Shown: positions 9,337-35,096 of the stretch, in pieces
Layout of the letters: each line of letters opens with the position of its first letter
Position numbering within the stretch: the first letter of the stretch is position 1
Assembly (NCBI GenBank): GCA_019057375.1
Contig: DXJF01000029.1
Span: forward strand, 1-35,389
Reading direction: 5' to 3'
DNA from: Candidatus Heimdallarchaeota archaeon
Lineage (GTDB): Archaea > Asgardarchaeota > Heimdallarchaeia > Heimdallarchaeales > Heimdallarchaeaceae
Length of the DNA stretch: 35,389 nt
Translations under genes and position numbers: made by a program
The notes under the pieces: generated by a model
The model's database searches: none
Seen by the model: the letters and a program-made list of their open reading frames with translations, nothing else
Told to the model about the DNA's origin: nothing

Positions 9337-10512
9337 TTAACAATGTTTTAACGGAGTTAGTACTTCCCCTGGTATCCTTCCTTTCAACGGTTCCATTTCT
9401 TTACATTCAGTGATTGTTATTTCTTCATCAAAGATGAATTTTCCAACTCTTTTCACTTCTTCCAACACTTGTTTTTTAATTGAAACCTCTGGCTTTTCTA
9501 GAAAAAATATCTTAATAGTTGATTTTTTACTACTAACAAAATCCCATATTCCTATAACTCTCCCATTAAGAAGGATTGCTGAGGTAGCATTTCCAGATTT
9601 ATCAAACAGATAACTGTAATGATCTTCTTTGACATACCTTTCTCTATCTTTATGTCCCATTAAATATGGATCTAAATCAGAAAGAAGAGTAACAACACTT
9701 TTTTCAGTTTTACTAATTGTTTGAAGTTTTTTCAAATCTTCAGATAGAATCAGGTACTCTTTGTCGATTCCTTTGATTTGAATTTTCTCAATTTGACCTT
9801 CTAATTCCTGAAGTATCCTTCTTGTTTGAGTTTTATTGAACCCAGTCCACCACACAATATCTGTTTCTGTAGCTGGACCTAGACATTCGAAATACTTTCT
9901 AACCAAGAATTTCATACTTTCTTCTTCATTGATTCCTTCAAAGCTCATTTCTGGGAAATATTCTTTGAAGAGGGAGTATGTGTGTCTCTTATCTCTCCAA
10001 CTCTTTACTGGCTTAGTTCGTATCAAGTCTAGTTGATCACACATCAAAGTAATGAAATGAGTAGTGTACTCTTTAGAACTAATTTCTTTTTTTATATCAG
10101 CTGTTGATAAAACCTTACCAGTCAAAATTCTTCTTATTGCATTTGCAGCTTTCTCATATACATCAACTGTAACTCCAAGATTCTTTAGATAATCTTCATG
10201 ACGTTTTGAATATTGTTTCTTTGTTGCTATAAATAGACGTGGAATCAGTTCTGTAGGTTGAATAAAGATTGTTTTTCTCATACATCTGATTTTTCCCAAA
10301 TTCTTCTTTTCATAGATTTCTTTTTCCAAATCTTCTTTCCTGAAATCTATAGCTCTGAAGAAAGTAGAAAGATAGGTAGTTGTCTGACTTGTAGCATGAA
10401 GTCCTCCAATATCATATACTATTTTCGAAATATCTTCAATACGTGATTCAGGAACCAAATGTTGTTTGGTTAGAATAAAGTAATTGATTTCTGAAGCTGT
10501 GAATTCATCCAT
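9337..10512 (-). CDS. HTH_42 / AlkZ-like winged-helix DNA glycosylase family protein
   Basis: GGLHATSQTTTYLS at the catalytic-motif position, RCMRKTIF, LGPATETDIVWWTG, LLSDLDPYLMGHKDR and LLNGRVIGIW. Confidence 0.85.
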   Translation of the reverse strand: MDEFTASEINYFILTKQHLVPESRIEDISKIVYDIGGLHATSQTTTYLSTFFRAIDFRKEDLEKEIYEKKNLGKIRCMRKTIFIQPTELIPRLFIATKKQYSKRHEDYLKNLGVTVDVYEKAANAIRRILTGKVLSTADIKKEISSKEYTTHFITLMCDQLDLIRTKPVKSWRDKRHTYSLFKEYFPEMSFEGINEEESMKFLVRKYFECLGPATETDIVWWTGFNKTQTRRILQELEGQIEKIQIKGIDKEYLILSEDLKKLQTISKTEKSVVTLLSDLDPYLMGHKDRERYVKEDHYSYLFDKSGNATSAILLNGRVIGIWDFVSSKKSTIKIFFLEKPEVSIKKQVLEEVKRVGKFIFDEEITITECKEMEPLKGRIPGEVLTPLKHC

Positions 10513-10631
10513 AAAGATTCATTCAATTTCAACCTTTTTTATTTTTCTGATGACAATTCAGATTTATATATTTAAAAAAAATGTAGTCAATAAGAAGCCA
10601 ATTAAGCTTAACATACTTAGTAGTGAGATAC

Positions 10632-11339
10632 ATGAAAGAAGAAGAATTCAGGAAATTTCTCAAAAGAAAGGGTAAAAAAGCAGATGTAATTGATAGAAAT
10701 GTTACATCAGTAACTAGATTTATTGAGTTTCTAAAGAAAGAAAGAGGAAAAAACCTAGATTCTACGATAAAAGATGACATTGATTCTTATGTAAATGAGA
10801 TAGAGAAAAAACAAAAAAAATCAGCTAAAGGAGCTTTGTATGTTCTGATGAACTACTACAAATTCACTGAAGATAGTGAAATGTTATCATATGTAGCAAA
10901 ACTGAGAGAAGAAAGAACTAAGAAATCACGAAGAGTTTTTCCAATTAAGGAGTTCCACAAGGTCAATTCTGAATATGTTCAAAAACTCTCTAGTGTTGGT
11001 ATAAAAAACGTTGAACAAATGCTTGAAGCTGGCAAAACCAAACAACAACGAAAGAAACTTTCAGAGGAATTAAACATACCTGAAGAAGCAATTTTAGAAC
11101 TTGTAGAACTCTCAGATATTACTCGAATAGGATATGTTAAAACAAAACTAGCTCGTCTTTATCATAGCGCTGGAATTGACTCTCCTACTAAACTTGCTCA
11201 ATTTGAAGTTAGCGAACTCTATGAGTTTTTTAAGAAATATGTGAAAGAATCAGGTTGGGATGGTATGGTTCCCAATCCTAAAGATCTAGAATACAATATT
11301 CGCAATGCTAAGAAACTTAAAGAAATTGTAGAAAAATGA
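10632..11339 (+). CDS. DUF4332-domain protein with an N-terminal integrase SAM-like helical domain
   Basis: C-terminal KLSSVGIKNVEQML...LSDITRIGYV...AGIDSPTKLA (HhH-like DUF4332). N-terminal FRKFL...F.EFL...IDSYV...LMNYYKF. ATG at 10632. Confidence 0.7.
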   Translation: MKEEEFRKFLKRKGKKADVIDRNVTSVTRFIEFLKKERGKNLDSTIKDDIDSYVNEIEKKQKKSAKGALYVLMNYYKFTEDSEMLSYVAKLREERTKKSRRVFPIKEFHKVNSEYVQKLSSVGIKNVEQMLEAGKTKQQRKKLSEELNIPEEAILELVELSDITRIGYVKTKLARLYHSAGIDSPTKLAQFEVSELYEFFKKYVKESGWDGMVPNPKDLEYNIRNAKKLKEIVEK

Positions 11340-13593: not shown

Positions 13594-14496
13594 ATGGTAT
13601 CAGATGAAGAAAAATTCGGTAAAACAATAATTCTTTCTGATGGAAGACAATTTGGTTATATTGAAAGAGGAAATCCTGAAGACAAAGCTGTTTTTTATAT
13701 TCACGGATGGCCTAGCTCTAGATTGGAAGTGTTAGAGTGTGAATCATTTACTTCATTTTCAGGGAGTAGAATCATCTCAATAGACAGACCAGGAATTGGT
13801 TTATCTGATTTTAAGAAGAAAAGAACAATTCTTGATTTAGCTGATGATATTGTAGAACTAGCAGATTTCTTAGGCATAGAACAATTTTCTGTCTTAGGCT
13901 TATCTGGTGGTGCTCCCTTCGCACATGCATGTGCTTACAAAATCCCAGACCGTTTACATTCAGTTGGGATAGTATCAGGAATGGGACCATACTATATTAC
14001 AAAGGAGCACTTATCAGGACCAGTAGGATTTATGCTTTCTTTACTAAGAGTTGCACCTTGGTTAATGAGGTTATTTCTGGGGATTGTATTTGTAAGATCT
14101 TTGAGATCAAAAAATCAAGAAAAAGCAAAAGAAAAAATGAGAGCTAATTTAATGAGTAATTTACCAGAACCTGATGAAGAATTATTAAAAAAACCAGAAG
14201 TATTTGCTGTTACGTGGAGGCAAATGCAAGAAGCATTCACTAAAGGTGCAAAAGGACCAACTAAAGATGGTTCACTTTATACTAAACACTGGGGTTTTGA
14301 ATTAAGTGATATACCAAAAGAAGTTAAGATTTTTCTTTGGCATGGGGAAATGGATAATACTGCTCCTGTAGGCATAGGAAAAGCAGTAGCAAAAGAGATA
14401 CCTCATTGTGTAAGTAAATTTTATCCAAAAGAAGGACACTCCTCTCTACTGATGAACAATTTTGATGAAATAGTTAATACTTTACTCAATGCATAA
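13594..14496 (+). CDS. Alpha/beta hydrolase
   Basis: HGWPSSRLE, DRPGIGLS, nucleophile GLSGG, WHGEMD and EGHSS. TATATAAA lies about 22 nt upstream of the ATG. Confidence 0.9.
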   Translation: MVSDEEKFGKTIILSDGRQFGYIERGNPEDKAVFYIHGWPSSRLEVLECESFTSFSGSRIISIDRPGIGLSDFKKKRTILDLADDIVELADFLGIEQFSVLGLSGGAPFAHACAYKIPDRLHSVGIVSGMGPYYITKEHLSGPVGFMLSLLRVAPWLMRLFLGIVFVRSLRSKNQEKAKEKMRANLMSNLPEPDEELLKKPEVFAVTWRQMQEAFTKGAKGPTKDGSLYTKHWGFELSDIPKEVKIFLWHGEMDNTAPVGIGKAVAKEIPHCVSKFYPKEGHSSLLMNNFDEIVNTLLNA

Positions 14497-14962
14497 TGCA
14501 GAACTGAGCTTTCTCAAAATCTAATAACCATTTTTTCCTATCCAGTCCTCCTCCATACCCTACGAGCTTACTATTTTTACCAATTACTCTGTGACAGGGA
14601 ATGAAGATACTGATAGGATTCTGTCCGTTAGCATTACCAACAGCTCTTACAGCTGCTATATTTCCAATTTTAGAAGCAAGCTCACTATAGGAGATAACAC
14701 TACCAAATGGTATCTCAAGAAGTTTCATCCAGACTTTTTCTTGAAATTCTGTACCAGAGGGAAGCAAGGTGAGATCAAACTCTTTTCTCTTTCCTGTAAA
14801 ATACTCATCTAGCTGAAGCAAAGCTTGTTTTAGAATTGATGGAACGGTTTCAGATTGAGCTTCTTTTTCTTTGAAATTACTAGCTAGTAAGCTATTCTGG
14901 TCACTTACTATCTCTAAATTACCAATAGGGGTGTCATAATTTGTAAAGAATTTATCTGGCAT
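14486..14962 (-). CDS. ogt: Methylated-DNA--protein-cysteine methyltransferase
   Basis: Active-site PCHRV, GTEFQEKVW, RAVGNANGQNP and GYGGGLDRKKWLL. Confidence 0.97.
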   Translation of the reverse strand: MPDKFFTNYDTPIGNLEIVSDQNSLLASNFKEKEAQSETVPSILKQALLQLDEYFTGKRKEFDLTLLPSGTEFQEKVWMKLLEIPFGSVISYSELASKIGNIAAVRAVGNANGQNPISIFIPCHRVIGKNSKLVGYGGGLDRKKWLLDFEKAQFCIMH

Positions 14963-16999: not shown

Positions 17000-18360
17000 T
17001 ATTACGGGAGCTTTTATAGGGAATTCAAGGGAGAAGGGTGATGACAAAAGTACTGAGAGTGGAATGTATAGAACTCCCCTATCACCAAGCTCTAAGCACA
17101 CTTTGTCATCAAGTGAAAAACCTCTATAATCGAGCGAATTATCTAGTAAAGCAATCGTTGAGTAAGAAGAGCAAGTTGCTAGTGTACTATGACCTCAACA
17201 CCTTACTTAAGGAAGAAGCGTGTTACAAAACCCTTCCCGCACATACTGCACAACATACCCTCAAGCTCCTTTGCAGAAATTGGAAAGGATATTTTCGTGC
17301 ACTGAAGGAATGGAAAAAGAATCCTGCATTGTTCTTCGCTATGCCTCAACATCCTAACTACAAAGCGAAAGATGGGGAAGTTGTAGCTATCTTCACCAAC
17401 CAACAAGCGAGGATAATAAATGGCTGGCTAGTCCTTCCTAAGAAAGTAGGCTTCTATTACAAAACTCGACTGACAGCGCGTACCACGTTGAAAGAAGTAA
17501 GAATTGTCCCACGACGAGTGGGTTACACTCTCGAACTAGTGTATGAGAAAGTCTTACCTAAACCACGAAAACGGTTTACCAGGAAAGGTGCGATCGATTT
17601 AGGATCTATCAACTTTGTAGCCTTTGTGGATAACCTCGGCAATCAACCGATTGTTATCAAGGATCACGGGAAAGGGATAAGAAGTATTATCCAATATTAT
17701 TTGAAACAACAAACACAATTAAGATTACAATATGTCCAGCAGCAAAAACAGCAATTAAAAACAAGGAACAAACTCAGCTATGGTCCAGCCTATTATCATC
17801 TTCGTGAGAAGTGGCGCAAAAAACTCAAAGATGCTATCCACAAACTCACAAGATATTTAGTAGACTTGTGGGTTGAACGGAACTTACATGAAGTCATTAT
17901 CGGTTATAATGAGAAATGGAAACAGAATGTCCATTTCTGGAAAAAGATCACCCAGATGTTCGTAGCTATTCCCTTCATGAAAATTATTCACCAGTTACAG
18001 TATAAAGCGGCTGAACATGGGATAAAGGTTGAGCTTATACCCGAAAAGTATACTTCTAAGTGTAGCTTTCTGGATAATGAGTTTCCCAGGTCTAGGGAGA
18101 AGTATGCTGGACGTAGAATTACTCGAGGGTTGTTTAAATCTGCACAAGGTCATCTGATCAATGCTGATGTCAATGCTGCATACAATATTTTAATCAAAAG
18201 CGATCCGAAAGCATTGCCTAAACGGCGTGCGAACGGGGTAGGAGGATACGTGATGTATCCACGTAGAGTGAGTGTTGACCCATAATGACCTCTCCAAAAG
18301 ACATTCGACTATGCTTGGTTAATATGCCAAGATGACATAAACTCATCATTTTGAGAAAGA
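17000..18360 (+). mobile_element. Non-autonomous tnpB-only (IS1341-like) element; ends not defined
   Basis: tnpB has no adjacent tnpA or serine recombinase, and a hairpin-rich segment sits at and after the tnpB 3' end. Boundaries are approximate. Confidence 0.55.
17038..18285 (+). CDS. tnpB: TnpB RNA-guided endonuclease (IS200/IS605-IS607 superfamily), rearranged-RuvC subtype
   Basis: N-terminal KNLYNRANY and RNWKGYF. RuvC-I AIDLG, VIIGYNEKWKQ, PEKYTSKCSFLD, RITRGLF and RuvC-III NADVNAAYNI. Confidence 0.93.
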   Translation: MMTKVLRVECIELPYHQALSTLCHQVKNLYNRANYLVKQSLSKKSKLLVYYDLNTLLKEEACYKTLPAHTAQHTLKLLCRNWKGYFRALKEWKKNPALFFAMPQHPNYKAKDGEVVAIFTNQQARIINGWLVLPKKVGFYYKTRLTARTTLKEVRIVPRRVGYTLELVYEKVLPKPRKRFTRKGAIDLGSINFVAFVDNLGNQPIVIKDHGKGIRSIIQYYLKQQTQLRLQYVQQQKQQLKTRNKLSYGPAYYHLREKWRKKLKDAIHKLTRYLVDLWVERNLHEVIIGYNEKWKQNVHFWKKITQMFVAIPFMKIIHQLQYKAAEHGIKVELIPEKYTSKCSFLDNEFPRSREKYAGRRITRGLFKSAQGHLINADVNAAYNILIKSDPKALPKRRANGVGGYVMYPRRVSVDP

Positions 18361-23718: not shown

Positions 23719-25074
23719 TTATTCAGGAATGAAAGGTCTCAATGATTCCTCATTGATTTGCTCTTTGCATATTGGACAAGTTCCTTTAACTTTGATCCAT
23801 TCTAATATGTGATTTTTATGAAAAATGTGGTTACAAGGTTTTGTTAGAACTATTTTTTCTCCATCTACAATGATATTCTTACATATTTCACAGTAAGGAG
23901 CTTTCTTCCCACAATTTAAACAAACAATAGGTCCTTCATCTTCTACTTCTTGTAACTGAGCGTTGCAGTATATACAGAGTATTTTTTCTGGCTTTTCTAC
24001 TACTTTCCTTGAGAATTCTTCTGTTGTTATGGGAACTTCAACATCATAACGAATGAAGATTTCTTGATCTTCGATGAGCTCTCCTACTTCAGGAGTGTTT
24101 TTTAGAATCAATGACAAATAAGTTTTGAATATTGATGAAGGGAGACCAGTTTGTTCCAATAAGCGCTTTAGAGATATTTGAACTCCTGGATTAAGTGTTG
24201 TAATTGCGGTTCTAACCTTATCAAAGTTTTCTAGATATACTATCCTGTCTTTTAGTTCAGTAATTTGTTTACCAATGTCTTCTTCTGTTTTCTTTATAGT
24301 CTCAAAAATTGATTTTGCACTATTGGGTTCTAATCTCTCTATTTGATCAAGATTTGATGTAATTTCTATCAATTCTTTTAGGAAATTCCTGAATTCCATT
24401 CTTGCAGATTTTAATGCTTCCAAAGTTTGGCTTTGAGAGGTTTTTTTAACTAGATTATTGATTTTTTCATTTATTTGAATTACCTTCTCTTCCTCTGGTT
24501 TTAACATTGATAGAACCTTTGCCACCCATTTCTCTTTGTCACTTATACTATAAGATTCCACTTTTTCTCTTTCTTCTACTGAACTAAATCCTAATTTCTT
24601 AGTTTCAAGCAATTCCTTTTGTTCTTCTCTTTTTACTAAAATTAGAAAAACTAAACTAGCTAAAGTGAAGAGAAAGATGGTCAAAAATCCGAGATGTAAA
24701 AAGATTTGTGATTTATTCATTAATTCCAGAAGAAATAGACCTCGAATATAGAATGCTATTGAAGCTAAACCTGTTAATATCGGTGTTAGGGGGATGAACA
24801 ATGCAAATATGGGGATGACTAAAGCTAATGTTCGTTCTTTACTCCTGAAAGCTTTGACAATCCCATAGATTGTTAAAATGATAAAACCAGCAAAGTAAAT
24901 ACTTGAAGGAATCACCCACCACGAGAAAATAGCTGCTCCTGACAATGCATCATCTAAATCCTGTTCAAAATTGAATATGAAATTGAGTAAATATCCTACC
25001 ATTACAAAGAAAAATATATTCTCAATTGCTGTGAGTAGAGTAAAAATATGTTTTGTTTTCATTTCTAAACTCAT
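23719..25074 (-). CDS. Membrane-anchored RING-finger protein (putative E3 ligase): about 4 TM, coiled coil, wHTH-like, Zn ribbon, RING
   Basis: C-terminal CEIC-x13-CNHIFHKNH-x10-CPIC and upstream CIYC/CLNC. The likely start is ATG 25074; the 5' extension of the tracked ORF does not look like protein. Confidence 0.85.
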   Translation of the reverse strand: MSLEMKTKHIFTLLTAIENIFFFVMVGYLLNFIFNFEQDLDDALSGAAIFSWWVIPSSIYFAGFIILTIYGIVKAFRSKERTLALVIPIFALFIPLTPILTGLASIAFYIRGLFLLELMNKSQIFLHLGFLTIFLFTLASLVFLILVKREEQKELLETKKLGFSSVEEREKVESYSISDKEKWVAKVLSMLKPEEEKVIQINEKINNLVKKTSQSQTLEALKSARMEFRNFLKELIEITSNLDQIERLEPNSAKSIFETIKKTEEDIGKQITELKDRIVYLENFDKVRTAITTLNPGVQISLKRLLEQTGLPSSIFKTYLSLILKNTPEVGELIEDQEIFIRYDVEVPITTEEFSRKVVEKPEKILCIYCNAQLQEVEDEGPIVCLNCGKKAPYCEICKNIIVDGEKIVLTKPCNHIFHKNHILEWIKVKGTCPICKEQINEESLRPFIPE

Positions 25075-25447
25075 CAAATACAATTGAGGTATGAATATTA
25101 AGCTTTTTCCAAATTTACCACCTTTATAAATCAAATTTCTGATAATAGTTTTCCTACACCTATCTTGTTCCACAACCCACTGAAAGCAAATAAAAAAATA
25201 AATGGTGAACATAGTGAGTACAAACACACATACAAGAGTAAAAGAAACAGTCCAGAGATATCTCTCCTCTTTTGAGAGATTTCAAGAAGAACTTTTATCC
25301 TTAAAGGATTTAAGATTAAGAATCAATCAACCATATTTTCTTACAAAACACTTCATTTGTTCAAATCCTTTATATGTTTGTGCTATCATGCTAGTTGTTT
25401 ACTTCTTGAAAGAACCTACATATTATTAGCAGTGTTGCTAGAATGTA

Positions 25448-26926
25448 CTAAATGATTTCCAAATCTTTGTTTCTATAGAGTATTTGAGTAATTTTTCGTA
25501 ATTTTGTGTCTTTTTTTGAAATTAGTCTTTCTTGAATTTTAGTTCCGTTTTCTGAAGATAATAAATCTTTTCTAGTAATACACTTTGAATCTTTATCATC
25601 AAAAAAGAATATGTTCTCATAATCAATATTAGAGATTCTATCATTGATTTGATTCAATAAACTTTGATTATTTACGATTTTTGAATTACTCTGAATTATC
25701 TCTTGTTTATAGAATGGAATATCATATAAATTCAGTAATCCATACTTACAAGATAGAAAGACTACATCTAGCAAGAACAACAATTTTTCTTGCTGTTTAT
25801 ATGATAACAACTTCTTAAAAATCTGATTCTTTGAAATATCGGACATAAAAGCAAATGAAAGGTTACAGTTTATTTCATCAAATTCTGGTAGGATAAGAAG
25901 ATATTTTTTATAAAAAGAGAAAATCGAACTATTTAGATAGGAGCGGATCTGCTTGAATCTTAGTTTTCGTTTTTCTTTAATATCCAAATTAAAGATTGTT
26001 TCATAAATTTTTATTAGTGACAAGTAATTATTCAATTCTCTTTTCTTTCCACTTATTTTTCTCAATTTTATAATTTCCTTTTCGATTTTATTAAGTTGGT
26101 TTAAAAGAGTTGAATTATCATCTTTGGAAATATCTAAATGTTTGTTTTTGTCTATTTCAGCTATTGTGATTAACCTATCATGTTTCAATGAATTTAATTT
26201 ACTTGCAGATTTACTATCCATTTCATTTAATTTTTGAAATAACTTATTCAGAAAAGTTTGAGGAACCTGATAGTTAAACACCCAACCCTTATAATCTCCT
26301 CCATATATTTTATTCAACTGAAAAAACTTGTGTCTTTTTGGATGATAGCACCCCAGTAAAAATAGCCAATCATTAGGATATTTTCTTCTAATAGATTCGA
26401 CAACTTCCTTTAAGAAACCTTCATTTTCTACCTTTACATATCTTGCACTATTAATGTTTTTCTTTAGTAATCCTCCAATAGCTATGTAAGTATATCCAAT
26501 ATCTTTTAATCTTTGATAACAACTTAAGTAATCATCTAAATTAGAACCTTGAGCTACACCTACTAACTTAAAATTATATGTAGATTGATTGTAAACTGAA
26601 ATTGCTTCTTTAGCACTCTCTATTGTTGCTGTACTATTCTTAATTGTATCAATTATTATACCATAAGAAGCATGCATATTTTCATAAATAGTAAATAGAT
26701 CAGTATAATTTTCTGGTATACAACCATCTTTAGTAAAAACTCCTGAATCACACATTTTAACAATATTTGGTGCTTTAAAGTTTCTAAACTCTTGTTGAAA
26801 ATTTTTAGAAGTATTTGCATGACCCATTAATCCAATTTTGAATGGAAGTTTGTCTATCTCACAGTACTTCAGTATCTCTAACGACATTTGTCTATCTACC
26901 ACGAAGAACGGAATCATTCTAATCAA
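25448..26926 (-). CDS. Divergent TGT-fold (queuine/archaeosine tRNA-ribosyltransferase-like, DpdA-like) enzyme with a C-terminal DUF6884-like segment
   Basis: TGT motifs in order: D60-SG, IID93, VAQ126G, AIGG152L, FLLG192, GGD211. No CxCxxC Zn site and no PUA domain. C-terminal FLSCKYGLL. Start is TTG 26926 (overlapping the upstream stop) or ATG 26917. Confidence 0.8.
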   Translation of the reverse strand: MIRMIPFFVVDRQMSLEILKYCEIDKLPFKIGLMGHANTSKNFQQEFRNFKAPNIVKMCDSGVFTKDGCIPENYTDLFTIYENMHASYGIIIDTIKNSTATIESAKEAISVYNQSTYNFKLVGVAQGSNLDDYLSCYQRLKDIGYTYIAIGGLLKKNINSARYVKVENEGFLKEVVESIRRKYPNDWLFLLGCYHPKRHKFFQLNKIYGGDYKGWVFNYQVPQTFLNKLFQKLNEMDSKSASKLNSLKHDRLITIAEIDKNKHLDISKDDNSTLLNQLNKIEKEIIKLRKISGKKRELNNYLSLIKIYETIFNLDIKEKRKLRFKQIRSYLNSSIFSFYKKYLLILPEFDEINCNLSFAFMSDISKNQIFKKLLSYKQQEKLLFLLDVVFLSCKYGLLNLYDIPFYKQEIIQSNSKIVNNQSLLNQINDRISNIDYENIFFFDDKDSKCITRKDLLSSENGTKIQERLISKKDTKLRKITQILYRNKDLEII

Positions 26927-27801
26927 AACCTCAAGAAATTCTCGAAAAAATCATTTTCTATTATTTTTGCTTCTTGCCAGAATACATTAAAGAAATCCCT
27001 CCAGAACAAAGCATTTTCACCTAATTGAATGATTCCTGCTTCACCGTTAGTCAAAAAGGATGCTTCTCTAATTTCTCCACTTCCAACATAGGAATATTTA
27101 TTATCAACAACAATGATTTTCTGGTGAATTCCTTCATAGTGAAGTGAATGAGTAGAAGAGTGGTTGGTAATTCTGGACGAATATTCTCTAATCTGGATTC
27201 TAGTTTCCGGATTTGTTTTATTATCATTGTAAATACTAATTAGTTTTCTGAAAGCACGAATCTTTGAAATAAATGGAAATCCATCTCTTTCAATTTCTAA
27301 TATTCCTCTCGTTATTATTTTAATTGAAACTCCTTTGGTAGCTACTACTGAAAAATCATCAATCAAATAGGATAACCCACTACTTTCAAAGAAAGGTAGT
27401 ATCAAACATACTTCTTTTTCTGCAACTCGAAGAAGTAACTTAAAAGCATCAATAAGATTAATTATGTCTACAGACACATATTTCTTTCTAAGTGAATTCA
27501 ATTCTTCAGCAAGAGATAGTGGAAAGTTAATTACTAGTTTATCATTTCCTATTACATCATTAATCATAACATCAGATTTAGGGATTGTCGATTTTATTTT
27601 ATCCAAATCATCTAAATAATATATTTTTGTATTTCCCTGAATTTTTGCACTTATTTTCTTCTGTTTGACTAAATAGTCTAAAAACAAAAGAGCATGGTTA
27701 ACTTCATCTGAATTTAATTTCTCATAAACTTCCTCTTCAGATATAATTTGATTTTGTTCTAATGTTTTAACAAGCCATTTATAAATCTGTTCTATCCTCA
27801 T
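26923..27801 (-). CDS. Single-HKD phospholipase D-family nuclease with an N-terminal wHTH-like domain (DrmC/DpdK-like)
   Basis: H226-Q-K228-IIVV-D233-NKYSYV-GSGE...NGEAG, plus LILPFF and IKIITR. Confidence 0.85.
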   Translation of the reverse strand: MRIEQIYKWLVKTLEQNQIISEEEVYEKLNSDEVNHALLFLDYLVKQKKISAKIQGNTKIYYLDDLDKIKSTIPKSDVMINDVIGNDKLVINFPLSLAEELNSLRKKYVSVDIINLIDAFKLLLRVAEKEVCLILPFFESSGLSYLIDDFSVVATKGVSIKIITRGILEIERDGFPFISKIRAFRKLISIYNDNKTNPETRIQIREYSSRITNHSSTHSLHYEGIHQKIIVVDNKYSYVGSGEIREASFLTNGEAGIIQLGENALFWRDFFNVFWQEAKIIENDFFENFLRF

Positions 27802-29624
27802 TAGCTACCACTTTCCATGTTTTCAAAGGAATATTCCATGAATGATTTTGAAAAACATCTATCTAGAAGAGAGTTGGATGGTAACCATCTTGAAATTTCA
27901 TTAGGCATGAATGGATGGCAATAGAAGTCTTCTATAAATATACAAGCAGGACAAGCACTTTTACACATTTGTCTACAGAAACTTATTTGTTTAGAGAAAT
28001 TTCTAAGCATTTTTTTCATCTCTCCTCCTTGTTTTCCATAGGTTAATTGAACAAGTCCTCCTGAGCTTACATCTTCAAGTTCGTACAAAATAATTGCACA
28101 ATCTTCTAATAGAATCTTACTTCCAAAAATCTCCATACCGATCTGATTTGTTATAGAAGAGAATAATGAATGTTCCAAAGAATGTAATAGAGGAGCTAAA
28201 CCGTTTCCCTTGTAATTATCAAGAACATCTTGAAAATTTTCTTGATTTATATACTCTATTTCTGTTGATACGATTTCTTGATAGCTTTTTGATTCTTCAT
28301 AATTATTCTGATAATTTATAAACTCCTCAATTCTTTGTTTATCAAATTTGAAAACTAGTCCTCTTCCTTTTGTGATTATCACATATGCTCTGTACTTATT
28401 TCTACCATGAACAAAAATATCTGCTAGTTTATCAACTTCAGGTATAATAATTGGATAGGAAGAAGTACCTGACTTATATCCATATATTGAGGAAATTGTT
28501 GTAATTTCAGGTATTGAAAATATATCACTAATTGAGAATAAATCCAATATCATTTTCTTGTTTAAATCTTCTAGTTCATCGGAAAGTTTCCAATAGTACA
28601 TGTCTAAGTCTTTCATTTTTTCATTCTGTTTTTCTAATTCCTCTAAATTTACAATACGATTACCTAAGAAAAGAAAACTCTTAATCAATGGGATATATAA
28701 TGAGGAAGAAGATAGAGATGGTTTCATAATGGAGGAAATGCTCTTTTCTTCATCACTGCTATAAACATGGCATACGCAATTCTTAAACAGTCTAGTTTTG
28801 TAATCACAATTTCTATCAGAACAAAACCAAAAAGAGCCAGAAATGGATTCAGTTTTAAAGAAGTGAAGGTGTCCATTATTACAATTGGGACACTCAATTA
28901 AACTTCCTCTGATATTTTCAACTTTTATTTTTGGTGGTACTAGTTCGTGTACCTCAGTACATCTAGGACAAGCAAAAACATAAGGAAACTGTTCCATCTG
29001 GTTTTTTATGAGTTTTTGATTACACTGCGGGCATGTTTTCACGTTTTTATCTGATATCTGCTTCTTGCAATTGACACAATACGAAGCACAACAAGGGCAG
29101 TTTGTGTTCTCTGTAGTTTCCGGGTCTAGTATTTCATAATGCCCACAGAAGTTACATCGAAAACTCAAGGGAAAAACTTGGGTTTTGAGTGTACTTTCAG
29201 AAGTAATCTCTTTAAGTTCAATTAATGATGGATGAATATGATAATCCTCATCTTCTAACGCAGCACTAGATTCAGTTATTGTTTCTGGTACTTCTCCAAG
29301 TAGTTCCTTTAATTGAGAATCGATTATAGAATAGTCATCAACTTCGGATTCTTCTTCAGTAGAATCTTTTTCCTTTTTTAATTGAAAGAATTCATTTTGT
29401 CTCTGTGCCAATATCTTGAAATGTTCATTTTTTTTCTTAAGTAAAGTACCAATCTCTAATGATAATGATTTCGAAATTTCAGGATTTTCGTATTCAGTTG
29501 TTTGTAATATTTTCTCAGTTCTTATTGAACATAAATCTGTAGTATTTACTGCTTTTTCAAAATACCTGTATAATACTTGCCTCTTAGATAATTGAGATAT
29601 ATTTTTCATTTTAGTTATCCTCAT
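27801..29624 (-). CDS. drmB: DrmB-like DUF1998 (MrfA-type Zn-binding) protein
   Basis: FPLSFRCNFC, EQFPYVFAC, SSSSLYIP...SFL, GRGLVF, LLHSLEHSL, AIILYE...GGLVQL, C...C.SACPAC and NSLLDR follow the DrmB layout. Confidence 0.8.
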   Translation of the reverse strand: MRITKMKNISQLSKRQVLYRYFEKAVNTTDLCSIRTEKILQTTEYENPEISKSLSLEIGTLLKKKNEHFKILAQRQNEFFQLKKEKDSTEEESEVDDYSIIDSQLKELLGEVPETITESSAALEDEDYHIHPSLIELKEITSESTLKTQVFPLSFRCNFCGHYEILDPETTENTNCPCCASYCVNCKKQISDKNVKTCPQCNQKLIKNQMEQFPYVFACPRCTEVHELVPPKIKVENIRGSLIECPNCNNGHLHFFKTESISGSFWFCSDRNCDYKTRLFKNCVCHVYSSDEEKSISSIMKPSLSSSSLYIPLIKSFLFLGNRIVNLEELEKQNEKMKDLDMYYWKLSDELEDLNKKMILDLFSISDIFSIPEITTISSIYGYKSGTSSYPIIIPEVDKLADIFVHGRNKYRAYVIITKGRGLVFKFDKQRIEEFINYQNNYEESKSYQEIVSTEIEYINQENFQDVLDNYKGNGLAPLLHSLEHSLFSSITNQIGMEIFGSKILLEDCAIILYELEDVSSGGLVQLTYGKQGGEMKKMLRNFSKQISFCRQMCKSACPACIFIEDFYCHPFMPNEISRWLPSNSLLDRCFSKSFMEYSFENMESGS

Positions 29625-32600
29625 CTACTTCATTTGCCGTTAATAGATCATCTTCCTCATAGAAAGAAAACATGTAATTTCTCTGTTTTTCCAAAACTTC
29701 ATATAGTTTCACATCAGATATACAAAGAATAACGTCTCTCTCTGTTTTCGCTCTCAAAGAGAATAAAAACTCATCCTCTTCTTTTAAAATATTTGCAATA
29801 TATTGGTTTGGACCTTTTCGAACTCTGAACAATTGAATGTATTTAATAATTCCCTTTCTGATAATCAAAGCAATTTCTCTAATAAGGTCCTTATTAGAAG
29901 AAGATTCGACCATTGCATTTAGAATATCATATTCCAAAGCTTTCTGTCTATTCGAATTAGCTCCAATATTTTTTGTGAAGGAAGGAGCAGTTAATGAGTA
30001 CTGGTTGAATCCTCTGTATGACTGTGCTGCTATTATAGCTTTCATAATATTAGGTAATAATAATCGAGTTGCAAAGGCATTACTCTGTTCAGTCGGTTTA
30101 ACATCAAAATATCCTTTCACATCACTCATAACTGAGTGAAAGTTTTCATACCAAAAAAGATCTCGTGGTATTGATGGTAATAGATGAATTACAACATGTC
30201 CAGGAAATACTCCTCTTCCTGTTCTCCCTGCTGTTTGAACAAATTCAGTCATTGTTCTAGGAACACCTAGCATAATCATGTTATTCAGATTTTCAATATC
30301 AACACCTAAAGAGATGACTAAATTTGCAAGAAGAAGTTTAATATCTCCATTTATGGCTTTTGTTAATATTTCTGATATTTGTACAGTTTTTGAGTCACCA
30401 CTAAGAAAGTCTATCAGGATTTCATATCCGAGATTCTTTCTTGACATATCAATTAGAGCTTTTCGTAAACTGTAACCATCTCTTTTTCTATATAGATATC
30501 CAAGTATAAAATCATAAGCTAGTATATCGTTTTTATTTACGTTATTGATTTTTTGTTTCAATTCCTTAGTCTCATGAAGATCAATAAAAGTATGCATAAG
30601 AGCATTTGAAACAGTAGTTCGACTAGATCTGGAAACTGGAAGAATCAGTACTGTCCTATACCTAACTTTGCTATCATTGATCTTGAAATACTTTGATCGA
30701 TTAGAATCCTTTGGAAATACTGAAATATTGCTGGAACGAGTGATTTTACTTAATAATTCTACATCATTAGCAATAGTTGCAGTTCCGGTTTCAAATGTTA
30801 AATCACTAATAAAACCATCCTTGTAGTACTTATTTCCAATAATTTTATCTGACATTATCTTTAGAGTTTTAAGAAAAACAGATAATAAAATACCAGTTAA
30901 ACCATATAGTGAATGTATTTCATCGAATACAAAATAACCAATGGGTGAGTTTTCTATCTTATCTAAATGTACGTTTTTATTACACTTATTACAAACAATA
31001 GATTCTTTATTCGGGTTCATTAGTGGAATACAAAAACCACAACTGCATCTTTGATAAGAACCACCAAAGAATCTCAAATGCCCTAATTCATAACCAGCAA
31101 CAGTTGCTTCATAAAAAAGTTTATCTGGAGTTGCGATAGTCATTAAAGGGATGTATTCTTCTGCTTCTCCTGTAAGAGCAGTTGGTCTAAACATATAATC
31201 TATGTGATGATCACAATTATCACATACACCAATCATTCGTGAATTGACCAGTTTTGCATGAACTTGGTTTCTAGATTTACATTTAGGACACAAATCATAT
31301 TGAATCATTAGTTGCCCTTCAGTGATATCTGACATCGCTCTGAATAGCGGATCATATTGCCCAATATGTAAACCACCTGTAATTTCATTGTTTTGGAGAT
31401 TCTTTCTTAGATGATAAATAAATGCAGTTAGCCGCTTGAACATGTCTTCATTTAATATTCTCGTTGGAAAAGCTAATACAGACCTTTGTTCTTTTAGTAG
31501 GGAGTGAAGAGCTGCATTAACCATAAATACTATAGTCTTTCCTGTTCCAGTTGGAGCTTTAATAATTGTTACAGATGATTTTTCATCATTTAGTAGTTTT
31601 ATTATTCTATTTTGAATAGCTTCCCACTGAAATGTGTAAAGGTTCTCAATCTGAAAACCATCTTTGGCAGATTTTAAGATATTTTTAATTATTTCAAATG
31701 TATAATCTATTTTTATTTTCTCTAAATGCTCTTTAGTTAGTAAATTCATGTTTTTTAGAAGATTTTCCTTAGATGATATTAAAAGCCCTAAATTAGGTCC
31801 AATTGAAGGTTCTTCTCTAATCATATCAAAAACTCCAAAAGGAAGAATCAATATTTTTCGTAAATCAATTGTCGATTTAGTAAGAACACAATTATATTGT
31901 TCATAGTAGAGTTGTGCATCATCTGTTCCGAGATTATTATCTCTAGAAGAAGCTCGAAGCTGAGATTTTAGTACTTCAGCATGCTGTTGAGGAGGTATGA
32001 TAAAATTTGAATTTACTACTGAAATATCCAAAAAAGGAAGAATCAGAATTGAGGTTCTCCATTTTAATTCATCGGGAAATCTATGAGGTTTAACATCAAT
32101 ATCAGTTTCATTAACTAAAGAGATTTCTATTCTGATAGAATTATCAACATTCTTTTTCTTTATGATTCTTAATACAAGCTTAACATTAGCTTGACCTGAA
32201 ATCAAATCGACAAAAGCTAGATCATCTAAGGATTTGATTGTCTCTACAGTTTTTTCAATAGATATCGTTTCTACTATCTCACCTTCTTCTTCCTTTGCGA
32301 GTTCGTCGATTTTTATTTCATAATCAAATTCATAATTATCTGGTGATACACTTTTAATCATAAATTTACCATTGTCTAGCAATTGATAATTTTCACCATT
32401 AATTTCTAAATTACTGAATTCATCAGGTAAGTCTATTTGGGGATTACTGAGATATCGTTTCTGTGTGGATGTTTTAGTTTTCCTATATTCTCCGTATCTA
32501 AGATACTTCACAATACCAAATCCCCCTTTTATTTTGAGAATCACATCTTGATTTTTTTCAATGTGAAAATTACACATTACATTTGGAGGATATCTCCAAG

Positions 32601-32814
32601 CTTGGTTTTTCTTAAAAATATTTAAATCCCGAGGTACAAGTATATTTGAATCAGATGAATACCTCAATAATTCATTATTTCTATAAGTAACATTTGAAAT
32701 CTGTTTTGTAGATATTTCATTCAACAATTCTTTATCATCAGTTTGAGGTACTAAGTGTTGCATTAATTCTTTAATTCGATCCTCTAAACTGGAAGTTATT
32801 TTTGTTATTTTCAT
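29611..32814 (-). CDS. drmA: DrmA-like superfamily 2 helicase
   Basis: YTFQWEAI, APTGTGKT, PTRILNEDMFKRL, GLHIG, IATPDKL, DEIH, GTAT, LANLVISLGVDI, GVPRTMTEFVQTAGRTGR and PRDLFWYENF match DrmA-type motif spacing. Confidence 0.85.
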   Translation of the reverse strand: MKITKITSSLEDRIKELMQHLVPQTDDKELLNEISTKQISNVTYRNNELLRYSSDSNILVPRDLNIFKKNQAWRYPPNVMCNFHIEKNQDVILKIKGGFGIVKYLRYGEYRKTKTSTQKRYLSNPQIDLPDEFSNLEINGENYQLLDNGKFMIKSVSPDNYEFDYEIKIDELAKEEEGEIVETISIEKTVETIKSLDDLAFVDLISGQANVKLVLRIIKKKNVDNSIRIEISLVNETDIDVKPHRFPDELKWRTSILILPFLDISVVNSNFIIPPQQHAEVLKSQLRASSRDNNLGTDDAQLYYEQYNCVLTKSTIDLRKILILPFGVFDMIREEPSIGPNLGLLISSKENLLKNMNLLTKEHLEKIKIDYTFEIIKNILKSAKDGFQIENLYTFQWEAIQNRIIKLLNDEKSSVTIIKAPTGTGKTIVFMVNAALHSLLKEQRSVLAFPTRILNEDMFKRLTAFIYHLRKNLQNNEITGGLHIGQYDPLFRAMSDITEGQLMIQYDLCPKCKSRNQVHAKLVNSRMIGVCDNCDHHIDYMFRPTALTGEAEEYIPLMTIATPDKLFYEATVAGYELGHLRFFGGSYQRCSCGFCIPLMNPNKESIVCNKCNKNVHLDKIENSPIGYFVFDEIHSLYGLTGILLSVFLKTLKIMSDKIIGNKYYKDGFISDLTFETGTATIANDVELLSKITRSSNISVFPKDSNRSKYFKINDSKVRYRTVLILPVSRSSRTTVSNALMHTFIDLHETKELKQKINNVNKNDILAYDFILGYLYRKRDGYSLRKALIDMSRKNLGYEILIDFLSGDSKTVQISEILTKAINGDIKLLLANLVISLGVDIENLNNMIMLGVPRTMTEFVQTAGRTGRGVFPGHVVIHLLPSIPRDLFWYENFHSVMSDVKGYFDVKPTEQSNAFATRLLLPNIMKAIIAAQSYRGFNQYSLTAPSFTKNIGANSNRQKALEYDILNAMVESSSNKDLIREIALIIRKGIIKYIQLFRVRKGPNQYIANILKEEDEFLFSLRAKTERDVILCISDVKLYEVLEKQRNYMFSFYEEDDLLTANEVDEDN

Positions 32815-35096
32815 TTTCCCCTCGTCTCACTTTGAGTTTCTCTTCCATACAAAGTTATTACAAATTTAACAGCTTTCACATTATATCCTTTCTCATGAGT
32901 TATTTGAGTATTATCTCTAGAGATATGGGGGGCCATATGAGCAAACATTCTCTTTAATTTTAATACAATCCTATGAGCTTTTGCTATTCTTCTTCCACTA
33001 GCCAACAAGTTTACAGTCCCATTATTCTGTAGAACATTCTTTGCGAACCAGAAATAATTCAGTTCATCTTTTTTTCCAACATAAACATCTTTTCCAGTAA
33101 AGCTTTCATCTTTATTTATCATCATATGATTGTAATAATCTAGTTTACGTACACTCATTTCTTGACCATGTTCCAATTTAACAGAAAAAATTAGATTCTG
33201 AATATCATCATAATTTTTGTATTCATTATCAGATACTATAATGTGCTCCTTTTGAAAAATAGCATATGAGTATGTTAGTGGATGAATTAGAGCAGAATTT
33301 TCATTTATTAAAGACCAAAACATATAACAACGATTATCTTTTGATGCAATTTTATGAGGAAACGAGGGATCTGCCACATTTTGGATCATCTTTTGAAAAA
33401 AATCACGACTAGTACAATTGTAAATGTAGTAGACATTGCCTTTATATTCGAAAATATATCCTTCCTCTATAAGTTGTATAACTAATTTCTCCAATTGTTC
33501 TGTAGGAACTATACATTTTAACGAAATTAGTCTCTCTTTCGAAATAAAGCCAAAGTACTTAACCAAAGCAACAATATTTGCTTTGAAGGCCTCATCTTTT
33601 TTCAAAAATCGAATAGAAAAATTGTCAACTGCATAGAAAGCTTTGTTCTTCTGCTTAGATTTCTTAAAAGCAAAGAAATCATTTCTTAAAAGCACACTTA
33701 TCCATCCTCCTGACTTTAAATCATGAAAAGTATCTATGTTGTATTTGTAAGTATGAAAATCCCATTTAATAGTAAATCTATTTCCAAAAATATCTTTAAC
33801 AATGGTTACAGGTGTAGGAGAGCTTATTTCCAAGTTACGTTCGATTCTAACAATAGCTAAAAAAAATCTACTTAATTCATAATGACCTTTCCAATTCCCC
33901 ATATCGATATTGAAAGCTTGAAGATATCCTTTTTGTGAGAGTATAAATTCGATAGAAGGAATCCCTGTTGATAACATAAATGATCTTGATATCAACTCGG
34001 GATCTCTTTCATCAAATAAAATAGTATCTCTTGTTCCAGTATTTTTCAATCTTCCTAAATATGGATAGATTCTCCATCTTTTCAAAGTAACTTTCTTCAA
34101 ACGAACTTCAAATAAATTCGTACTTCCAAATTTAATTCTCTTCGGATATATGGATGTTGGCCAATGGAGAAATAATTCTAGATCTGGTATATACAGTTTA
34201 TAATAATTTGTTTTCCAGTTATTAGTAGATGATAAAGGATTAGCTTTGTATATAATTCCTGTTATTTCTGGATCAATTTCAAATTCATCTAAATAGGACC
34301 AGTCAAAATATGAGGTTATATTATCTATTAAATAATTTAAGAAGTTTTTAGCAATAATATTCTCTTTATCTACTTGCTCAAAAAGCAGCTCCAAATCTTT
34401 TACAAATGAAGTACCTTCAATATATCTGAAATTTCTTTCATATAGTGCTAATATGAAATTTTCAATTTCTGATTCACTTTTAAGATAATAACTATATGAT
34501 TTGGAAAGAATAGAAGAAATAAGTGATGCAATTGTTTCTATACTAATTTCTGTTTCTTCCATTGAAGGTTCGGTTTCAATAAAATCATCTTTATACTCTA
34601 CCCAGATTCTTGCTGTATGAAAAATGCTGTATATTTTATGCATATCTTTTTCATTAAAACAAAGGAAATTTGTTGATTTTTCATCAGATTGAACATGAAG
34701 AGCTCTAGTTATCAAGTCTTTATATATTTGCTCAGGAAGAAAAACTTTTCGTATATCTACATAAACTATTTTTTCTTTCAGAACAGCGGGAATTTTAAAG
34801 ATACCTGGAGAATATTGATAACCATGAATGATAGCTTCATTTCTCTTTTGAGCTTTCAAATCTTCGTCTATACATATGTAATAATACTGTTGTTTACTAC
34901 TCGGAATCAATTTTCTAACTACCCAGTTATTACGAAATAATACAAAAAAGGAATCATTACTATTATCTTTCTTGACTTTCAAGAAATCCCAGGATCTTGT
35001 CTTTGGATTAAAGAATTGCCAGAAATCACCTTTTGATACGCTGAAAAGAAAATATGCTCCAAGTTTTTCTTTAAAAGCGAACTGATCTAATTTCAT
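32811..35096 (-). CDS. Large unknown protein with a C-terminal Alba domain (possible OB-fold and wHTH upstream)
   Basis: Residues ~670-755, VYVGKKDELNY...VNLLASGRRIAKA...NVKAVKFVI, align with Alba (VLIGKKPVMNY...IVIKARGRAISKA). ATGA overlap with the helicase gene; GGTGGT upstream of the ATG. Confidence 0.75.
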   Translation of the reverse strand: MKLDQFAFKEKLGAYFLFSVSKGDFWQFFNPKTRSWDFLKVKKDNSNDSFFVLFRNNWVVRKLIPSSKQQYYYICIDEDLKAQKRNEAIIHGYQYSPGIFKIPAVLKEKIVYVDIRKVFLPEQIYKDLITRALHVQSDEKSTNFLCFNEKDMHKIYSIFHTARIWVEYKDDFIETEPSMEETEISIETIASLISSILSKSYSYYLKSESEIENFILALYERNFRYIEGTSFVKDLELLFEQVDKENIIAKNFLNYLIDNITSYFDWSYLDEFEIDPEITGIIYKANPLSSTNNWKTNYYKLYIPDLELFLHWPTSIYPKRIKFGSTNLFEVRLKKVTLKRWRIYPYLGRLKNTGTRDTILFDERDPELISRSFMLSTGIPSIEFILSQKGYLQAFNIDMGNWKGHYELSRFFLAIVRIERNLEISSPTPVTIVKDIFGNRFTIKWDFHTYKYNIDTFHDLKSGGWISVLLRNDFFAFKKSKQKNKAFYAVDNFSIRFLKKDEAFKANIVALVKYFGFISKERLISLKCIVPTEQLEKLVIQLIEEGYIFEYKGNVYYIYNCTSRDFFQKMIQNVADPSFPHKIASKDNRCYMFWSLINENSALIHPLTYSYAIFQKEHIIVSDNEYKNYDDIQNLIFSVKLEHGQEMSVRKLDYYNHMMINKDESFTGKDVYVGKKDELNYFWFAKNVLQNNGTVNLLASGRRIAKAHRIVLKLKRMFAHMAPHISRDNTQITHEKGYNVKAVKFVITLYGRETQSETRGK

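Follow-up and report, generated by a model that had tools for sequence, protein, structure and literature searches.

Which function could be served by a protein with the guanine transglycosylase (TGT) fold that is encoded at the end of a DISARM-like operon in an Asgard archaeon? This question is raised by a 35,389-nucleotide contig of Candidatus Heimdallarchaeota archaeon (DXJF01000029.1, assembly GCA_019057375.1; the whole contig is referred to here as the window), in which the last operon gene (25448..26926, minus strand) codes for a DpdA-like TGT barrel followed by a helical linker and a DUF6884-like domain. An earlier note, made from the letters of the window alone, had proposed that this protein exchanges bases in DNA and is not the housekeeping tRNA TGT. 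Combining its fold, active-site residues, relatives and genomic context, we arrived at self-marking of DNA with a 7-deazaguanine, predicted to be deoxy-preQ0 (dPreQ0) for the window copy, as the likeliest role, a reading held with somewhat better than even confidence.

The TGT-fold barrel and its active site

The N-terminal domain (residues 1-220; 26267..26926, minus strand) was assigned as a minimal (beta/alpha)8 TGT-fold barrel from an AlphaFold2 model, Foldseek and profile alignments; residue numbers refer to the 492-residue product counted from TTG 26926. The model, built from 79 family sequences, showed a pLDDT of 86.8 and a pTM of 0.88, and comprised eight beta/alpha units at residues 5-212, long helices at 222-339 and then an alpha/beta domain. 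When it was searched with Foldseek against the Protein Data Bank (PDB), DpdA of Salmonella Montevideo (7UI4) came first (5.2e-9), with bacterial TGTs at about 1e-7 and the archaeal enzyme, arcTGT, at 1e-6, and the best 50 matches were DpdA or TGT throughout. The TGT fold predicted in the earlier note was therefore recovered as an eight-unit TIM barrel with DpdA as the top match.

Profile searches pointed to the same enzyme. Among all PDB sequences, 7UI4 was the only one matched by the family profile, and the target protein was matched by the DpdA models of PADLOC (PDLC02807; 8.9e-12) and NCBIfam (NF041059), the latter ranking first at 1.1e-10 and 40.9 bits, with tgt_general at 0.0039. No Pfam family matched the whole protein, and a phage-family Pfam match to its split halves was dismissed as chance. 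The nearest ESM Atlas clusters by features were short viral proteins, one of them partly annotated DpdA, and no match at E <=0.01 was obtained when the barrel was searched by tblastn in 50,697 phage genomes. The barrel displayed a median identity of 59% to the family members, and identities to the bacterial TGT, arcTGT and DpdA classes were about 14-17%.

The catalytic and substrate-binding residues that the earlier note had read in TGT order are all present: D60-S61-G62, D93, Q126-G127, G151-G152, L191-G192 of the LLG motif and D211 were invariant or nearly so in the 79-sequence family alignment. The family profile paired D60, F64, D93, Q126-G127 and G151-G152 with D95, F99, D130, H181-G182 and G206-G207 of 7UI4, respectively, the DpdA active-site residue roles being those given by Hung et al. 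(PMC10164549), and the shared layout also includes L191/L236 and, as a candidate pair, D211/D256. In terms of the Z. mobilis TGT, D60 is the counterpart of the general acid/base D102, and D93 and Q126 are those of the base-binding D156 and Q203. The pocket departs from that of DpdA at two points, H181 and GGMV of DpdA being Q126 and GGLL here. Alignment by hhalign to the arcTGTs of the host's clade paired DSG with DSG, D93 with D111, QG with QG and LLGCYHP with LFGAGHP, and ended at residue 198, before D211. This Asp is invariant and stands at the end of strand 8, 19 residues past the aligned Gly of G-x-x-H-P, a spacing equal to that of the Asp in the arcTGT F-D-S motif; it also lies 20 residues past L191, just as D256 of DpdA lies 20 past L236. 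A PDB profile search with residues 160-228 only, aimed at the pairing of D211 with DpdA, returned nothing relevant. From its spacing and invariance and from the Foldseek match of the whole model, D211 is a candidate for the nucleophile, the counterpart of Z. mobilis D280 and DpdA D256.

The CxCxxC...H zinc motif, formed in the host arcTGT by C268, C270, C273 and H296, is absent from the target sequence, and no PUA, C2/C3 or other C-terminal tRNA domain was found in the protein. The barrel ends near residue 220 and so has neither a zinc subdomain nor a PUA domain following it, in line with the earlier note. Lack of a PUA domain is shared with DpdA (PMC10164549), another TGT-fold TIM barrel, whose gene likewise lies in a defence locus, among those for YprA/DrmA-type helicases and a nuclease of the phospholipase D (PLD) type, and after which DpdC, an enzyme of the YaaA superfamily, acts in the pathway. 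Unlike DpdA, to which it is about 17% identical, the target has a barrel of about 220 residues instead of about 400, lacks the zinc site, the DpdA-specific insertions and DpdB, and is fused to its partner domain.

A degenerate DUF6884-like domain at the C terminus

Behind the barrel lies a long-helix linker (residues 221-339; 25910..26266, minus strand), delimited by the helices of the model and by alignment gaps; it is variable across the family (median identity 26%) and missing from the Archaeoglobus and Methanoperedens forms. Residues 340-492 with the stop codon (25448..25909, minus strand) form an alpha/beta domain that was recognized by profiles, VIA-align and the Atlas as DUF6884/ArcS-C1/YaaA-like, in a degenerate form. 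The earlier note had seen a resemblance to DUF6884/YaaA-like domains, and its homology part stands: among 78 aligned C-domains of the family, Pfam matched DUF6884 in 76, YaaA/DUF328 in 72 and DUF5591 in 14, and the window domain matched the profile of its own homologues at E 1.7e-31. The window copy itself, however, is degenerate and was matched by no Pfam model, DUF6884 (PF21818) included. Against the PDB, the profile of the C-domain family gave weak matches to AF0587, a DUF5591 protein (E 0.0075), and YaaA (E 0.16). A separate model of the domain (pLDDT 75.6) was aligned by VIA-align to AF0587 (2q07) first and to YaaA (5caj) third, with low Z values of 5.9 and 4.9, respectively, and no significant PDB match came out when this model was run through Foldseek. 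Eight clusters were listed by the ESM Atlas shape search, with template-modeling (TM) scores of 0.47-0.55 by query; DUF5591, DUF6884 or YaaA is present in seven, and TGT is the sole annotation of the eighth.

In this domain the median identity of the window copy to relatives is 20%, compared with 59% for the barrel. The near-invariant residues C348, S349, K352, A361, Y365, G367, G444, Y447, G465 and W474 are all substituted, the first three by E, F and I, such that P-E-F-D-E-I stands where relatives have S-C-S-x-x-K, and the YDGP and GKIGEK motifs are lost. What is kept is the LSAxxG motif, with only Ala changed to Cys: LSCKYGL at 391-397 aligns to ISAKYGL of the family. By comparison, C-x3-K is retained in 40 of the 42 C-domains, fused or free-standing, of the fetched loci; both Cys and Lys were lost only in the window copy, and a sister copy (L009) is without the Lys.

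C-x3-K and LSAxxG are the motifs of DUF6884, of which one member was reported to bind DNA lesions, abasic sites and RNA lesions (PMC11701544), while DUF5591 is the catalytic C1 core of the archaeosine synthase ArcS and carries the motif PC-X3-KPY (PMC10516641). At the level of sequence, the C-x3-K of DUF6884 recalls the PC-X3-K of ArcS. The family C-domain resembles DpdC (DUF328/YaaA) and the C1 domain of ArcS/ArcS2 (DUF5591; PMC10516641) in having C-x3-K and always a TGT-fold partner; it differs in that DUF6884 is a distinct Pfam family of putative enzymes, and in the window copy, with C, K and most conserved residues replaced, only the fold is recognizable. A free-standing DUF6884 protein of 235 residues, with intact SSCGKLK and LSAGFG, is encoded elsewhere in the same genome (L056:1261-1968, contig C58), unlinked to the operon and among neighbours that do not appear defence-like. 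The second step lost from the window copy might be carried out in trans by this protein.

Operon, family and host genome

The operon consists of genes for a 761-residue protein, DrmA, DrmB, DrmC and the target, in this order and in one orientation, with successive genes overlapping or abutting. All lie on the minus strand: the 761-residue protein at 32811..35096, the DrmA-like superfamily 2 helicase at 29611..32814 (PADLOC DrmA 1.3e-77; Pfam DEAD and Helicase_C), the DrmB-like protein of the DUF1998 type at 27801..29624 (PADLOC DrmB 1.6e-24) and the DrmC-like PLD nuclease at 26923..27801 (PADLOC DrmC 1e-25; Pfam PLDc_2 8.8e-9), whose stop overlaps the TTG of the target. Read from this TTG 26926, the target has 492 residues and overlaps drmC by 4 nucleotides (nt); read from ATG 26917, it has 489 residues and starts 5 nt past the drmC stop. 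The ATG is the likelier start, because a GAGG lies 11 nt upstream of it and the database copy P0002 begins there. G+C content of the operon region (0.27-0.32) is below that of most other parts of the window.

The arrangement resembles class 2 DISARM (drmE-drmA-drmB-drmC-drmMII), in which a large extra protein also comes first, homologues of DrmA, DrmB and DrmC follow in the same order within one coupled operon, and a modification gene comes last. In contrast to that system, there is no methyltransferase (DrmMII), the last gene being the transglycosylase, and the first gene has no DrmE match. Neither the operon nor the large open reading frames (ORFs) of the window gave a DNA-modifying methyltransferase in scans with Pfam, PADLOC and NCBIfam, the sole methyltransferase-family match being the Ogt repair protein at 14486-14962; nor did these scans place in any known family, DrmE included, the 761-residue protein, which has a weak Alba-like C terminus (Pfam Alba 2e-4, below the cut-off). 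It does cluster with L027:200-2437 and L052:11730-13646, relatives that also have no Pfam or PADLOC family and that accompany DrmA/B/C and TGT-DUF6884 in both archaeal loci. Similarity between this first gene and the 484-residue last gene of the Archaeoglobus variant was not found.

Several other genes of the window were noted. An AlkZ-like DNA glycosylase (9337-10512, minus strand; Pfam 1.6e-46) and Ogt, an O6-methylguanine-DNA methyltransferase (minus strand), are DNA-base repair genes about 11-16 kb from the predicted base-exchange enzyme. At 23719-25227, on the same minus strand and 220 bp downstream of the target, lies a gene for a 502-residue protein with a C-terminal RING finger (zf-RING_2, 1.1e-8), which is probably outside the system, because no related locus carries it. 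A TnpB/Cas12f-like gene (17038-18285, plus strand) and one for a protein with an integrase N-terminal SAM-like domain and DUF4332 (10623-11339, plus strand) may be remnants that mobile elements left in the vicinity of the island.

The family comprises 375 relatives in 90% clusters, and 433 matches at E <=1e-3 were found among 1.84 billion representatives, the best 150 of which were family members only, with no DpdA or TGT outgroup. It is nevertheless rare, with barrels at 39 loci in about 185,600 species genomes (one genome per species), spread over many archaeal and bacterial phyla. ORFs were called in all fetched loci and clustered to define context groups. The DUF6884 domain, fused or as a separate gene, is present at 41 of the 43 distinct fetched loci, and barrels not fused to a C-domain are usually accompanied by a DUF6884 gene within their operon. 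At about 29 loci the pair stands beside a NurA-like nuclease and a HerA ATPase (PADLOC HerA 1.4e-77; Pfam NurA weak), in the order DUF6884, NurA, HerA, TGT at most bacterial loci and NurA, HerA, TGT-DUF6884 fusion at most archaeal ones. Five loci have a SIR2/ORC-Cdc6 fusion with a CARF6-like protein, and at three (L045, L046 and L048) the TGT and DUF6884 pair is alone. DISARM-like contexts were found in the window, a Thermoplasmata metagenome-assembled genome (MAG; L027), Nitrosopumilus salarius BD31 (L052) and Archaeoglobus (L010); the large first gene is common to the first three, and in Archaeoglobus the C-terminal part of DrmA is fused with DrmB and DrmC into one protein. DISARM-linked copies do not group together on the maximum-likelihood barrel tree, which calls for four changes of the DISARM label, at least three of them imposed by well-supported branches, and the nearest relative of the window barrel is HerA-linked. 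Thus, the predicted marking pair has moved repeatedly between effector modules.

Individual loci departed from these patterns. At L027:2403-7361, DrmA is split into pieces of 556 and 538 residues by an opposite-strand ORF of 535 residues, probably an inserted mobile element, and at L052:10095-11397 the TGT-DUF6884 gene, first in its operon, is read as two overlapping ORFs (95 and 365 residues), owing either to a frameshift or to a sequencing error. In a Methanoregula MAG (L047:3053-9119), TGT-DUF6884 follows MutS, MutL and a fusion of an HhH-GPD glycosylase-like domain with a MarR-type winged helix-turn-helix, with no recognizable effector module. Two WOR-3 MAGs (L050:8634-9798 and L051) have a barrel-only member beside a small class-I methyltransferase and an AAA_33 kinase-like ATPase, with no DUF6884 gene; these neighbours may be a different way to finish the base.

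The host genome (3.47 Mb, 89% complete) encodes a normal arcTGT, ArcS and, on another contig, adjacent queD and queC. The earlier note had stated that no queC/D/E or folE gene lies in the window, and Pfam scans of its large ORFs indeed found no que or folE gene; nor were que genes linked to the family at any fetched locus. As for its suggestion that the enzyme draws preQ0 from the host archaeosine pathway, preQ0 is probably available because the genome has queD, queC, arcTGT and ArcS, so the supply is plausible, although QueE and FolE were not identified. The que genes lie at L003:337-2908 (contig C102) in the order DUF366, queD, queC and then a 212-residue ORF without a Pfam family, which might be an unrecognized QueE or another pathway gene.

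The target gene is absent from all 24 other genomes of the genus, and of 47 genomes of the order three have relatives of it, all weak. It is thus an accessory gene, with horizontal transfer as its probable origin. ORFs of 426-452 residues at L080, L081 and L082 (genomes G040, G030 and G029 of the same order) match only the mid-barrel profile (E about 1e-12 to 1e-13) and may belong to another, more remote DpdA-like family of related Asgard archaea.

Self-marking of DNA weighed against other roles

In three described pathways, a TGT-fold enzyme inserts preQ0 and a YaaA-superfamily domain then modifies the nitrile: arcTGT and ArcS in tRNA, DpdA and DpdC in bacterial DNA, and DpdA2 and ArcS2 in phage DNA, with DpdC and ArcS/ArcS2 acting on preQ0 already in the polynucleotide (PMC10164549, PMC10516641). 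By analogy, the TGT-DUF6884 family would repeat this insert-then-modify logic. The barrel would act on the double-stranded DNA of its own cell and put preQ0, drawn from the host archaeosine pathway, in the place of guanine, with D211 as nucleophile, D60 as general acid/base, and D93 and Q126 reading the base, and in most family members DUF6884 with its C-x3-K would convert the inserted nitrile to a further derivative. Because C-x3-K is lost in the window copy, the second-step product is probably not made there; the mark would stay dPreQ0, and the C-domain would serve only in DNA binding or structure. The enzyme would thereby fill the methyltransferase slot of the DISARM-like operon, whose DrmABC helicase-nuclease machine would spare marked self DNA and attack unmarked DNA. 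A mobile self-marking module would fit the family, because the pair is joined to at least three kinds of effector: NurA-HerA, SIR2/ORC with CARF-like proteins, and DISARM-like genes.

A number of observations weigh against such a role. The NCBIfam DpdA score falls far short of the 200-bit equivalog cut-off, Pfam TGT (PF01702) gave the N-domain alone 13 bits (0.054) against a 26.3-bit threshold, and the zinc site that is conserved in DpdA and TGTs is missing from the barrel. D211 was assigned from its distance to conserved neighbours, its invariance and the Foldseek match of the model as a whole, the residue-level alignment having ended before it, and the second domain is degenerate in the window copy. 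No DpdB-like ParB-type ATPase was found among the operon genes or window ORFs by Pfam, PADLOC and NCBIfam scans, and bacterial DpdA needs DpdB; phage DpdAs work alone, however, and DrmA could substitute. On the side of the host, QueE and FolE are missing from what was identified in an 89%-complete genome, and modules of the SIR2/ORC and CARF-like type, found beside some members, normally do without a self-mark. In the ESM Atlas, large bacterial clusters (447 and 67 members) hold fusions of DUF6884 to GIY-YIG nucleases, which suggests that the domain can also steer a nuclease to particular bases or lesions; taken with the reported lesion binding (PMC11701544), these fusions mean that DUF6884 might be a reader and not an enzyme.

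If the protein is a self-marking DNA writer, it could still insert a base other than preQ0, such as 7-carboxy-7-deazaguanine (CDG), the archaeosine base, another 7-deazaguanine derivative or an unrelated purine analogue. Phage DpdA classes do insert several deazaguanines (PMC10516641), the two pocket differences from DpdA and the lack of linked que genes would be compatible with another base, and L050 and L051 have a methyltransferase and a kinase-like ATPase in DUF6884's place. The partner domain, however, is related to enzymes that act on the preQ0 nitrile, the host makes preQ0 for archaeosine, and arcTGT, a preQ0 enzyme, has Q at the position of Q126, and we regard insertion of another base as unlikely. 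An effector or sensor acting on foreign DNA appears about equally unlikely. The barrel would then remove or bind guanine or viral 7-deazaguanines, and abasic sites or a signal would direct the PLD nuclease and the helicase, as in a type-IV-like arm; excision of guanines from invader DNA had been offered as an alternative in the earlier note and found no support here. We know of no TGT-superfamily member that acts as a plain glycosylase. An effector role would make orphan TGT and DUF6884 pairs, which have no nuclease, useless or damaging; the place taken by the gene is that of the DISARM methyltransferase, in an operon that has no other self-marking gene; and 40 of 42 relatives retain the Cys-Lys motif common to preQ0-nitrile enzymes. 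A writer fits better than a toxic glycosylase because of the obligatory pairing with a DpdC/ArcS-related domain and because of these orphan pairs, even though glycosylases of other folds that defend against 7-deazaguanine-modified phages exist (bioRxiv 10.1101/2025.10.29.685425), a DUF6884 member was reported to bind abasic and RNA lesions (PMC11701544) and others are fused to GIY-YIG nucleases, SIR2/ORC partners suit sensor-triggered systems, and the loss of C-x3-K would mean that second-step chemistry is dispensable in this operon.

A divergent guanine transglycosylase for tRNA or rRNA that merely adjoins defence genes is very improbable. It would account for the superfamily membership and the weak tgt_general and Pfam TGT matches, and ArcS has a comparable layout, with a TGT-like domain followed by the C1 domain (PMC10516641). 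Yet the protein is without PUA or C2/C3 domains, the genome already has arcTGT and ArcS, the gene adjoins drmC (4-nt overlap from TTG or 5 nt past the stop from ATG), all five genes are found together again in other archaeal phyla, the gene is missing from the other 24 genomes of the genus, and PADLOC, NCBIfam, the PDB profile search and Foldseek all placed the protein closer to DpdA than to any tRNA TGT. With DpdA as the best match, a separate arcTGT and ArcS in the genome and a defence operon around the gene, these sequence and model comparisons support the earlier proposal of a DNA-acting base-exchange enzyme.

Identity with two related systems was rejected. BRIGADE and Dpd-like YprA-helicase systems (Bell et al., bioRxiv 10.1101/2025.09.15.676423) likewise join a predicted 7-deazaguanine modification to DISARM/Dpd-type helicases and PLD nucleases in archaea. 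BRIGADE was reported in haloarchaea only, with a cluster for deazaguanine biosynthesis, YprA helicases that are unsplit and usually two in number, and DpdG and BrxC-like genes, and the main text of that preprint makes no mention of a TGT-DUF6884 fusion. The window, in contrast, has one split DrmA/DrmB pair and is without que genes, DpdG and BrxC-like genes; the haloarchaeal restriction, the linked biosynthesis cluster and the usual two YprA helicases set BRIGADE apart. In BRC systems (HerA/FtsK with GNAT and TGT; PMC12839542), a TGT homologue was proposed as an alternative self-marker in a non-Dpd defence without DpdB or DpdC. Their partner genes differ, being PglZ, DUF6079, STAND NTPase, DUF4007 and GNAT, and DUF6884 is not involved.

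Returning to self-marking with preQ0, we found no description in the literature of a TGT-DUF6884 module, or of its link to DISARM-like or NurA-HerA genes. We give about an even chance to the fuller proposal that restriction of the DISARM type is keyed here to a base-exchange mark: the Heimdall-group chromosome would bear 7-cyano-7-deazaguanine placed by a zinc-less, DpdB-independent DpdA-like enzyme, and TGT with DUF6884 would be a portable 'M' cassette, shared by archaea and bacteria, that serves 'R' modules of the NurA-HerA, SIR2/ORC and DISARM kinds. If this is true, 7-deazaguanine marking of cellular DNA would reach beyond bacterial Dpd and haloarchaeal BRIGADE to Asgard archaea, Thermoplasmatota, Nitrososphaerota and many bacterial phyla, and would be done by a much smaller enzyme, without zinc site or DpdB; methylation would not be the only mark read by DISARM-like machines, and the same modification cassette would have been put to use beside several effector modules of unrelated kinds. 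As a small enzyme acting by itself, such a DNA preQ0 insertase might also find use as a tool. The window copy, in what is apparently an intact DISARM-type operon of an Asgard genome, offers a natural comparison, in that it combines an intact barrel with a dead-looking second domain while its close relatives keep both, and could thus reveal the role of DUF6884.

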